Positions 45,918 to 49,194 of a stretch of 64,000 nucleotides of DNA are shown in pieces. The notes beneath the pieces are model-generated. The model was not told where the DNA came from and did not search any database. It saw only the letters and a program-made list of their open reading frames with translations. The stretch lies in IMG/VR virus record IMGVR_UViG_3300047312_000028, positions 64,001-128,000 of that record. One strand, given 5' to 3'. Numbering within the stretch: the stretch's first letter is position 1; each line of letters begins with the position of its first letter. This DNA is from a virus. The translations under genes and the position numbers were made by a program.

Positions 45918-46453
45918 GTATTCCATCGGTGCCGCATACCCCGCAAAATCCCAATGTCTTGCATCCAAATAAGTTCGTGGTCAGCTTTGCTGCTCTACCT
46001 GATGTAGAATACTGGTGTCAATCAGTAAACGTCCCAGGCCTTACTTTGGGAGAAGCTATACGAGCCACGCCATTCATTGACCTCTATTCACCAGGTGACA
46101 AGCTCATTATTAACCCATTCGCTATCACATTCACAGTAGATGAAGACTTACTTGGGTGGCTTGAAGTTTACAAATGGATGCGAGGTATTACATTCCCAAA
46201 AGAATTCAGCGAATACGCAAATCTCGACAAGCGATTCGCCGCATGGAAGACACCTATGCCACAATTCTCAGATGCCACATTGGTCATTCTTGACTCAAAA
46301 CAGAACGCAAGAATTCGCGTCAAGTTCCACAATTGTTTCCCTACCAGTCTGACGGATCTTCTCTTGTCAGCAACAAGCTCTCCAGAAAGTCCAGTTACCG
46401 CCGATGCAGTCTTCCGATTCGATTTGTATGAAATCGAGCGGCTAAGACCTTGA
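45914..46453 (+). CDS. gp3: Tail completion / tube terminator gp3
   Basis: N.L.PNKF, CQSVNVPG, PGDKL, F.VDEDL..W.E.Y.W, FPTSL; precedes uvsY. Confidence 0.82.
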   Translation: MSIPSVPHTPQNPNVLHPNKFVVSFAALPDVEYWCQSVNVPGLTLGEAIRATPFIDLYSPGDKLIINPFAITFTVDEDLLGWLEVYKWMRGITFPKEFSEYANLDKRFAAWKTPMPQFSDATLVILDSKQNARIRVKFHNCFPTSLTDLLLSATSSPESPVTADAVFRFDLYEIERLRP

Positions 46454-46478
46454 CTTTTAAGATAAAATCTGATATACT
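46450..46478 (+). promoter_or_regulatory. Sigma70-type promoter TTGACT-17-TATACT
   Basis: Near-consensus with 17-bp spacer; ATG follows 6 nt after the -10 box. Confidence 0.75.
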
Positions 46479-46484
46479 GCTTCT

Positions 46485-46949
46485 ATGATACTTGACACCA
46501 AAAATCCATCCAGTGAGCAAGTGGATGCACTACTCGCTGAATGGGCGACAGATGCGAAAATGGACCGTATAGAAATCTCTTCTGAACTCAAGAAGATCGG
46601 TTCACTACACTCTAAATACCTCACGATTCTATCTGCCCATCGTCGCGCTCTCAAGGAGAAGGAGCGAATCTATCACAAACTCTACAGAGTCAAGTATGAG
46701 TATTATACAGGCCGCCTGGACCAAGACACACTCAAGAAAAATAACTGGCAGCCATTCCCCTATACATTGAAGTCTGATATCTCGACATATATGAACAGTG
46801 ACCCAGACATTCTTAATGCGAAACGGGTTCTAGGCATTCACGAAGAAGTGCTTGAAATCTGTCAGATGATCTTGAAAGAACTCGGATCGCGCACGTTCCA
46901 ACTCAAAGATATCAGTCAGTGGGAACGATTTATAGCTGGCGTACATTGA
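46485..46949 (+). CDS. uvsY: Recombination mediator UvsY
   Basis: W..D.K.D, LHSKYL, EYYTG, R.FQ.K....W..F.AG. Confidence 0.88.
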   Translation: MILDTKNPSSEQVDALLAEWATDAKMDRIEISSELKKIGSLHSKYLTILSAHRRALKEKERIYHKLYRVKYEYYTGRLDQDTLKKNNWQPFPYTLKSDISTYMNSDPDILNAKRVLGIHEEVLEICQMILKELGSRTFQLKDISQWERFIAGVH

Positions 46950-47335
46950 TGTTTGGCAAATCTCTCGATGAAATCTTAGGATCCCAAGTAAGATTAACAG
47001 ATAAAGATAAGAATAAGTTTTTATCTGATTGTGGCACTCCGATTTCTAGTGTAGAAGCAAAAAGAAGAAATTTAGTCATAGTCGAATGCCCCAAGTGCCA
47101 TGTGTCTGGTAATGAACCGAACATGCGCCGATGGCACTTCGATAGATGCGCCCAGCCTTTACTCAATTGCAAACAATGTACAACAGTCATAAAGAGACAA
47201 GGAATTAAACCTTGGCTCTATAAGCAGAAAAAATACTGTAGCAAGAAGTGCTTCCAGGAAAGCAGCAGAGGGGTTAAAAGATCCCCATTATCAGAAGAAA
47301 CTAAAAAGAGAATAAGTATAGCCAAAAGAAGGTAA
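46949..47335 (+). mobile_element. Homing-endonuclease-associated gene (Zn fingers plus NUMOD3), no evident catalytic domain
   Basis: CPKC..G...MRRWHFDRC, CKQC...YCSKKC, SEETKKRIS; flanked by a recoded duplicate of the uvsY 3' end. Confidence 0.65.
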
Positions 47336-47341
47336 TTGCAG

Positions 47342-48805
47342 GTGTTCATTAGCACTATTTTTGTCTCAAAAAAAGATGAATCATTCATACAAATCAGCGC
47401 AGAAGACTCCGTTGGATATGAACTATCGGAGTACTTCTCTTTCTACGCGCCTGGCTATCAGTACACCCCTCTCTTCAAAAACGGCATGTGGGATGGTAAG
47501 GTACGTTTGTACAACCGTCGCTACAACACTCTTCCAGCAGGCCTCATAGGATATCTACAGAAGTTCGCTGCCGATCGCCAGTATAACATTACCATCGACG
47601 ATGCTGTTCTTATTACCACTAACTTCTCAATCGCTGAAGCGGATGCTTTTGCAAAAAGTTTAAGTCTTCCACACATTCCACACGATCACCAGATTGAAGC
47701 ATTTGCGAAGAGCATTCGTAATCGTCGAATTTTGGTGGTCAGCCCTACAGGATCTGGCAAGTCACTCTTGATGTATATGATTGTTCGGTATCTGCAATTG
47801 AGTTATAAACGCGGCTTGGTGATCGTTCCTACCACGTCATTAGTCGAACAACTATTTACAGACTTTATCTCCTATGGATGGAACTCAAACAAATATGTTC
47901 ACAGAATGTACGCTGGCAAGTCAAAGAAGATTGAGCATTTCTTAACGATCTCGACATGGCAGACATTGCATCTACAAGACCCAGAATACTTGAAGCAGTT
48001 CGACTTTGTACTTGGTGATGAAGCACATAACTTCAAAGCAAAGTCATTGACGGATATCATGGGTGGTCTCACCAATGCAGCGGTTAGAGTGGGTACGACC
48101 GGCACACTTGACGGTACCAAGGTGCATAAACTTGTACTTGAAGGTCACTTCGGACCTGTGTTCCAAGCCGCAACAACACGACAACTTATGGATGAAGGGA
48201 AGCTGGCGGATCTGAAGATCAAGTGCTTGATTCTGAAATATCCGGAAGAGACCTGTAAGAGTTTGAAGAAATCAACCTATGCCGAAGAGTATGAAGCTGT
48301 GATTCTCTCTGAATCACGCAAGAAGTTCATCCGCAATCTTGTCTTGTCACTCAAGGGGAATACGCTGATTCTGTTTCAGCTAGTGCGGAAGCACGGCGGA
48401 CCGATGTACGACGATATTGTGGCACACACCAAAGACCGTAACATCTTTTTCGTGCATGGTGGCGTTGATACGATGGACCGTGAAGACGTTCGACGAATCA
48501 CTGAAGAAAGCACTGATGCTGTGATTGTGGCATCATATGGAACATTCAGCACAGGCACGAATATCAAGAACATCGACAATGTAATTCTTGGTGCTCCATC
48601 GAAAGCGAGAATCAGAAACCTGCAATCAATCGGGCGAGGATTGAGAAAAACAGATACCAAAAATTCAGTCATGTTGTTTGATATCGTCGATGATCTACGA
48701 GTTGGTAAACATGTCAACTTCTTATTGAAGCATTTTGTCGAACGTGCCAACATCTATAACGAAGAAAAGTTTCCATTCAAGCAATACATGATAGACCTCA
48801 AATGA
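47342..48805 (+). CDS. uvsW: DNA helicase UvsW (start GTG 47342 or TTG 47336)
   Basis: WDGKVRL, SPTGSGKS, DEAH, TGT, QSIGRGLR SF2 motifs. Confidence 0.93.
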   Translation: MFISTIFVSKKDESFIQISAEDSVGYELSEYFSFYAPGYQYTPLFKNGMWDGKVRLYNRRYNTLPAGLIGYLQKFAADRQYNITIDDAVLITTNFSIAEADAFAKSLSLPHIPHDHQIEAFAKSIRNRRILVVSPTGSGKSLLMYMIVRYLQLSYKRGLVIVPTTSLVEQLFTDFISYGWNSNKYVHRMYAGKSKKIEHFLTISTWQTLHLQDPEYLKQFDFVLGDEAHNFKAKSLTDIMGGLTNAAVRVGTTGTLDGTKVHKLVLEGHFGPVFQAATTRQLMDEGKLADLKIKCLILKYPEETCKSLKKSTYAEEYEAVILSESRKKFIRNLVLSLKGNTLILFQLVRKHGGPMYDDIVAHTKDRNIFFVHGGVDTMDREDVRRITEESTDAVIVASYGTFSTGTNIKNIDNVILGAPSKARIRNLQSIGRGLRKTDTKNSVMLFDIVDDLRVGKHVNFLLKHFVERANIYNEEKFPFKQYMIDLK

Positions 48806-49182
48806 AAATGACCAAAGAAGAGGTGGCGTCTTACCATGCCAACTATTACCGCAACAACAAAGATAAATGGAAGCCCAACACAAGAACCAGTGCAGTAAGA
48901 AGAGCGGACGGTCAAAAACTAAAAAATCTAGTGTTCAGTCATTATGGAACAGTTTGTCAATGTTGTGGAGAATCTAGATTGGTGTTCTTAGCTTTGGACC
49001 ACATTCATAACAATGGAAAAGAAGACAGAAAAATTACTGGGCTGGGACAAAATCTCTATCGATGGCTGAAACTTAATAATTACCCAGACGGGTATCAAGT
49101 GTTATGTCATAATTGTAATTGGGCAAAAAGAGATGGAATATGTCCCCACAAGATAGAGAATGTCATTGATCTAAAAGGATAG
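48802..49182 (+). mobile_element. Free-standing HNH endonuclease
   Basis: CQCCGE...LALDHI.N.G...YQVLCHNCN.AK. Confidence 0.85.
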
Positions 49183-49194
49183 TTGTGCTATAAT
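49166..49194 (+). promoter_or_regulatory. Sigma70-type promoter TTGATC-17-TATAAT with extended -10 (TG)
   Basis: Boxes at 49166-71 and 49189-94. Confidence 0.7.

Follow-up and report, generated by a model that had tools for sequence, protein, structure and literature searches.

Background

An ORF accompanied by a duplicated, synonymously diverged terminus of its host gene, the other copy of which is left stranded downstream, is an established arrangement in fungal mitochondria, where such elements are called mORFs (PMC3630166). They are described from atp6, atp9, cox2 and nad3 of Glomus sp. and, as cited by the same source, from atp6 of Allomyces macrogynus. The Glomus comparisons revealed that the DNA differences between the duplicated termini are largely synonymous (PMC3630166), and one mORF nuclease has been shown biochemically to drive mobility.

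Bacteriophage T4 carries free-standing homing endonuclease genes of the Seg and Mob families, associated with intronless homing; among them, segE adjoins uvsW and cuts within it (PMC2988022). The T4 review does not describe a duplication of flanking gene ends (PMC2988022), and in the literature that we searched, the coverage of which is limited, no phage with duplicated, synonymously differing gene ends beside homing endonucleases was found. The DNA-binding part of a homing endonuclease may also serve as a sequence-specific regulator without cleavage, for which I-TevI, a transcriptional autorepressor (PMC2988022), and CapR, one of the HEG-associated zinc-finger domains of ICP1 and its satellites (PMC10055350), provide the precedent. 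Here we analyse the uvsY-uvsW junction of an uncultured T4-like phage, at which a small ORF is flanked by two copies of the end of uvsY.

Layout of the junction

The locus lies in a 64,000-nt stretch of viral DNA, referred to below as the window, which covers positions 64001-128000 of a viral record of 176 kb. This T4-like phage is remote from cultured ones (uvsY at most 37% identical to any); a blastn comparison of the region with 50,697 phage records gave no match, nor did scans of viral contigs with the single protein of uvsY or of the inserted ORF. A second copy of the inserted ORF was sought in the phage's own 176-kb record and is absent from it. The features of the junction are as follows:

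46450..46478, + strand: sigma-70-like promoter (TTGACT-17-TATACT), 5' of uvsY
46485..46949, + strand: uvsY, 154 aa (Pfam PF11056, E 1e-23)
46932..46949, + strand: functional upstream copy of the uvsY terminus (IAGVH-stop), with no internal GTG; colinear with the uvsY end of locus L100
46949..47335, + strand: inserted ORF, 128 aa, with a C2HC finger, a C4 (FCS/MYM-like) finger and a NUMOD3-like C-terminal helix
47328..47332, + strand: GAAGG, Shine-Dalgarno-like, 9 nt 5' of the uvsW GTG, made by the last codons of the inserted ORF
47335..47352, + strand: relic of the uvsY terminus on the downstream side, reading IAGVH-stop in the former uvsY frame; colinear with the overlap of loci L006, L039, L041 and others
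47342..48805, + strand: uvsW helicase, probable GTG start (Pfam UvsW_N, ResIII, DEAD, Helicase_C); start aligned with those of L006 (GTG) and L004 (ATG)

Both flanking genes match their Pfam families above the gathering score (UvsY, PF11056: 84.4 bits, cut-off 22.8; UvsW, PF21241: 72.8 bits, cut-off 25.3, with the helicase domains also present). Since no promoter or terminator of quality comparable to that of the promoter 5' of uvsY was found between uvsY, the inserted ORF and uvsW, the three genes are probably co-transcribed. The GC content of the insert is 0.387, against 0.44 in uvsY and uvsW.

The end of uvsY (46932-46949) reads ATA GCT GGC GTA CAT TGA, and the stretch at 47335-47352 reads ATT GCA GGT GTT CAT TAG. 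The two copies differ at 6 bases, 4 of them third positions and 2 in the stop codon, so that direct reading bears out an earlier note on this DNA, in which the peptide was said to recur behind the inserted ORF with differences confined to third positions and the stop. The ATG of the inserted ORF at 46949 shares its A with the uvsY stop (TGATG), while the second copy begins with the final A of the ORF's stop codon, TAA at 47333-47335. The same note had the downstream copy overlap the start of uvsW; the overlap is there, with the start placed at GTG 47342 instead of TTG 47336, the former being favoured by the alignment with the starts of insert-free relatives. The most likely uvsW start thus lies within the second copy, bases 47342-47352 of which now code for the first uvsW codons, and 7 of the 18 relic bases remain outside the uvsW coding sequence. 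In insert-free relatives GAAAGG, contained in the W-E-R codons of uvsY, stands at the same distance from the uvsW start as GAAGG in the window, which suggests that the ribosome-binding site of uvsW may now be supplied by the last codons of the inserted ORF. The boundaries of the insertion are as nearly exact as the earlier note had proposed, the right one at about 47324-47335 and the left one within a few bases of 46949. Whether the relic reaches further upstream, into the W-E-R-F codons (about 47324-47334), was considered, and the similarity there is too weak for such a claim.

Could the downstream IAGVH-stop be merely the N-terminal codons of uvsW read in another frame? From GTG 47342 on, 11 of the 18 bases belong to the uvsW coding sequence, and conservation of the uvsW start is enough to produce GVH-stop. 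However, the conservation of that start is itself the ancestral overlap, the match runs 7 nt 5' of the start codon, where it codes for Ile-Ala, and only a minority of the relatives have Ala at this position of UvsY. A chance test, in which the last five residues plus stop of every window ORF of at least 80 aa were searched for a recurrence within 700 nt, identified the IAGVH-stop flanking the insert as the sole such repeat. The same search gave no matches in 100 shuffled windows, and even four residues plus stop recurred there at only 0.01 per window. A coincidence is hardly credible.

As in mORFs, the ORF lies near the 3' end of a conserved gene and the C-terminal segment of that gene is present on both sides of it, the upstream copy being in the uvsY frame and in use. 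On the other hand, the duplicated segments of mORFs are much longer than the 18 nt found here, mORFs encode LAGLIDADG or GIY-YIG nucleases whereas the window insert carries no nuclease domain, and the downstream copy in the window bears the start of the next gene, unlike the dead relic of mORFs. Like Seg and Mob genes, the window ORF is small, wedged between conserved T4-like genes and patchily distributed among relatives, and it may share with them zinc-finger and NUMOD3-type DNA-binding modules, though no site-specific nuclease domain was detected in it. The overlap of its start codon with the upstream stop has a parallel in nrdA/mobE of T4 (PMC2988022).

Junction states among relatives

UvsY relatives from metagenomes are 60-79% identical to the window protein and have C-termini of the form ...WERFI[SAGQ]GVH. 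From the relatives 118 non-redundant uvsY-uvsW junctions were gathered (individual loci are given below by L numbers). No insert is present in 92 of them; the others are occupied by an SNase-like gene (13), the zinc-finger ORF (8, a share that is overestimated, because these loci mostly came from searches with the ORF itself), an intact GIY-YIG/NUMOD3 gene (1) or other genes (4). The empty junctions include that of L004, which is sister to the window in the tree of concatenated UvsY and UvsW (ultrafast bootstrap 100), and this shows the ORF to be an insertion as opposed to a core gene of this position.

The insert-free junctions reveal what the insertion interrupted. In many of them, found at various depths in the tree, the final codons of uvsY contain the GTG at which uvsW begins; insert-free relatives with 51-72% uvsY identity carry GGT GTN (CAT) stop enclosing the uvsW GTG, as exemplified by L006, in which uvsY ends ATA TCT GGT GTC CAT TGA with the GTG within. 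In a MAFFT alignment the insert-free uvsY ends align to the downstream copy of the window, and the colinearity runs on into uvsW, which identifies the downstream copy as the ancestral overlap of the uvsY end with the uvsW start. The comparison proposed in the earlier note, that uvsY of insert-free relatives should end like the downstream copy and adjoin uvsW, thus came out as predicted.

The grouping of the window with L004 is also supported in the tree of UvsW only (100/99). In the tree of uvsY only, the two stand apart, though their grouping is not rejected by the AU test (p 0.2). The test for a mosaic across the junction, in which the uvsY and uvsW trees were compared, revealed no significant conflict (AU p 0.2), and the expected mosaic is at most hinted at.

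L004, the sister, has nothing inserted; among the next relatives the occupant is an SNase-like gene in L003, a GIY-YIG gene in L002 and the zinc-finger ORF in L100. As five close lineages show four junction states, the uvsY-uvsW junction is a hot spot of turnover. The SNase-like ORF of about 105 aa (PHROG 452, E 6e-28), found at L003:2976-3293 and at 12 other junctions, is the commonest occupant among the relatives. In L002 an intact GIY-YIG/NUMOD3 homing endonuclease gene (L002:1746-2333) directly follows the uvsY stop and gives uvsW a new ATG. Loci L018-L020 retain only the first ~30 codons of such a GIY-YIG gene (VYWIHYKEH motif), followed by an SNase-like gene (in L018 the truncated GIY-YIG start and the SNase-like gene occupy L018:2911-3387). 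The pattern of L002 and L018-L020 indicates that cassettes were replaced one after another. In Sinorhizobium phage phiN3 (KR052482.1 / NC_028945.1) an annotated MobE-type homing endonuclease overlaps or adjoins uvsY; therefore the uvsY neighbourhood draws such genes in cultured phages too.

Homologs of the ORF and its C-terminal truncation

Although the ORF is not a core gene, its site is specific: the family recurs at the exact position in at least 6 other lineages. Homologs between uvsY and uvsW were found in L100, L095/96, L097/98, L009/10, L011/12 and L094, and L099 has a homolog directly 5' of uvsW. One comparison is offered by L100, the flanks of which are 72-73% identical to those of the window. 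Both share the left junction, with the ORF start at the uvsY stop and similar first ten codons; L100 has no relic, and the 3' end of its full-length ORF provides a new start for uvsW. Of the 18 other family members in the alignment, 17 exceed the window ORF at the C-terminus, most of them by 10-45 residues. Since these 17 run past its end, the window ORF is cut off exactly at the relic.

Some of the homologous loci have peculiarities of their own. In L098 (L098:1280-1345; L097 is alike) the interval between uvsY and the zinc-finger ORF has an ATG that overlaps the uvsY stop; codons reading M-A-D-G-Q-I-R-L come next, and this peptide weakly resembles the UvsW N-terminus of insert-free relatives, e.g. 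M-I-D-I-R-L of L043. This suggests a possible mirror-image scar, in which the 5' end of uvsW would have been duplicated instead of the 3' end of uvsY. In two distant lineages an 80-nt spacer precedes the zinc-finger ORF (L009:1469-1549 and L011:1154-1236), in both cases with TTTTTACTAAATA, which we take to resemble a T4-type late promoter; the window copy of the ORF has no such spacer.

The zinc-finger ORF could also be an old, vertically inherited resident of the junction that has often been lost, with the relic arising by a local rearrangement in the window lineage. It occupies the same position in lineages with uvsY only 30-73% identical to that of the window, the ORFs of L100 and L095 are 69% identical, close to the 68% of their uvsW genes, and the conservation of eight zinc ligands in the family implies selection for function. 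Pairwise identity of the ORFs tracks that of uvsW weakly (Spearman 0.37, p 0.05), a pattern compatible with mobility as well as with vertical inheritance of a gene that evolves fast, to saturation. However, on the tree the lineages with the ORF lie scattered among many empty ones and among junctions bearing unrelated nuclease genes, the empty overlapping junction occurs at several tree depths, and a relic of the overlap arises only if an overlapping junction was interrupted. We regard long residence as very unlikely, and take the ORF as an arrival at a junction that was formerly empty.

The inserted protein

Searches of Pfam, PHROGs and NCBIfam assigned the inserted ORF to no family (Pfam gave only sub-threshold matches to VATC and DUF7101) and detected no nuclease domain in it or in the proteins P0124-P0126, P0129 and P0134. 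A profile built from the ORF and two relatives matched 1099 proteins. The 16 with E <1e-30 are stand-alone proteins of 120-175 aa, while in the longer matches 2-8 copies of the C2HC finger follow, on the C-terminal side, a GIY-YIG domain (P0149, P0152, P0161 and P0164) or an HNH domain (P0145 and P0148). Residues 3-67 of the window protein resemble the C-terminus of T4-type SegD. The C-terminal helix shares 9 of 13 positions with the NUMOD3 repeats of L002, a similarity at the motif level only, with no Pfam match at E <=0.1. Neighbors in the Atlas are viral NUMOD3, HNH and GIY-YIG clusters, with scores below 0.9, and are to be taken as leads only. In the alignment of 19 family members all eight zinc ligands are conserved, together with the motifs EA..RN and NM.RWH; no nuclease motif (GIY-YIG, HNH or other) was detected in any of the 19.

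The AlphaFold model of the 128-aa protein has a pLDDT of 83.7. Foldseek found no convincing neighbor of the model in the PDB (best E-value 0.15), and a wide search with VIA gave Z values of at most 3.1, to YacG and zinc fingers of the FCS/MYM/TRASH type and for residues 67-113 only. The structure searches with the model did not recover the DNA-binding domain of I-TevI, and no sequence relationship of the protein to I-TevI, CapR or DUF723 was detectable.

We read the product as a putative DNA-binding protein of the homing-endonuclease type without a nuclease, judging from its modules and the company they keep. Its likeliest function would be sequence-specific DNA binding at or near the uvsY-uvsW junction. 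A more specific proposal, which we consider rather doubtful, is that it descends from a homing endonuclease, lacks the nuclease and is specific for the junction, being either a passenger or a domesticated junction binder. As a passenger, it might be spread via breaks made by nucleases encoded elsewhere, such as the GIY-YIG enzyme at the junction of relatives or the HNH enzyme encoded behind uvsW. Or perhaps, once domesticated, it binds the junction, either shielding it against such nucleases or tuning the expression of uvsW? If true, either option would make the gene selfish or protective, specific for one site and lacking its own nuclease.

Origin of the insert and the duplicated terminus

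The origin that we favor, and hold to be probable, is recombination between two phages, which would yield both the insert and the duplicated overlap, the insert being a nuclease-less cassette of homing-endonuclease DNA-binding modules. In the ancestor uvsW would have begun at the GTG within the last uvsY codons; now a cassette of ~385 nt lies between the two genes. One parent would have carried the ORF directly behind the uvsY stop, as in L100, and the other an insert-free, overlapping junction. The left join would have been homologous, within uvsY; the right join would have been illegitimate, removing the C-terminal part of the ORF and entering the partner five codons short of its uvsY stop. 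The upstream copy completes uvsY, and the downstream one retains the uvsW start and its spacing to the putative ribosome-binding site. A double-strand break made by a homing endonuclease may have played a part.

Whichever history holds, there is a simple reason for the persistence of both copies: the ancestral 18 nt did double duty, as the end of uvsY and as the start of uvsW, and any viable insertion had to duplicate these bases. As the start codon is no longer needed in the upstream copy, its third positions are free to vary, and under the two-parent origin the differences would be purely synonymous because the copies would be orthologous alleles of two phages. In fungal mORFs the donor and native copies can be told apart through a close relative, whereas both copies in the window match the uvsY end of L004 alike (13 of 18 bases for the upstream copy and 12 of 18 for the downstream one, in a segment that is too short and saturated at synonymous sites). 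The recombination scheme agrees with the core of the earlier note, the arrival of an insert together with a differently coded terminus. The note had also regarded the insert as a mobile element whose recoding destroys the target site; this may be so, and we keep it conditional given that the insert has no nuclease domain.

The order of events could have been the reverse: a tandem duplication would have split the overlap in the common ancestor of the window and L004, and the ORF would then have landed between the drifting copies without bringing a donor terminus. In the insert-free L004, 12 nt of the overlap do occur as a tandem repeat (GAGTTCATTGAT then ATGTCCATTAAC), through which its uvsY and uvsW abut instead of overlapping (L004:2948-2990), and purifying selection would by itself leave only synonymous differences in the upstream copy. 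However, the repeat of the window is 18 nt long, the upstream 7 nt of which are without equivalent in that of L004, and the TGA-T-ATG of L004 equals the left junction of L100, so that the footprint of a deleted ORF fits equally well. The truncation of the ORF exactly at the relic would also be left unexplained. We consider an initial tandem duplication unlikely and retain recombination between two phages as the preferred origin.

Another kind of split is reportedly found in Aeromonas phage Aeh1, in which nrdA is divided by a mobE-type gene. There too, a cassette, that of a homing endonuclease, lies in a conserved phage gene, and newly acquired signals for translation preserve the function of the parts on either side. 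In Aeh1 nrdA became two polypeptides, whereas uvsY and uvsW of the window are whole because the overlap was duplicated.

A second scar at the 3' end of uvsW

The other end of uvsW has also received an insert:

48802-49182: HNH endonuclease gene, inserted at the 3' end of uvsW (PHROG HNH, E 2e-12)
49166-49194: promoter overlapping the relic IDLK (TTGATC-17-TATAAT)

The functional end of uvsW, IDLK-stop, occupies 48791-48805, and at 49165-49176 a synonymous variant of IDLK forms the end of the HNH ORF. From 49165 on, the sequence is colinear with the uvsW end of L004 and with the promoter overlapping that end. To judge from the sequence, this is a scar of the same type as that between uvsY and uvsW, with duplicated bases that would be dual-use, here as a gene end and the -35 box of a promoter. 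Homologs of the HNH gene are also located behind uvsW in L022, L023 and L036.

Conclusions

Gene mobility of this kind is already familiar in phages, and the scars found here are unusually clear. What is new is the phage context with an 18-nt duplication that resolves an overlap, the nuclease-less, site-specific family, and the two scars that flank one gene. Scars of this type could aid annotators in defining gene boundaries and detecting insertions in uncultured T4-like phages. Base by base, they document the entry of a cassette into overlapping essential phage genes, neither of which was broken: the bases that both used are now present twice, one copy for each of the two earlier functions. 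In close relatives the uvsY-uvsW junction has 4 or more alternative occupants, which marks it as a hot spot, and the occupant in the window points to a predicted family of nuclease-less, homing-endonuclease-like DNA-binding proteins tied to one genomic site.
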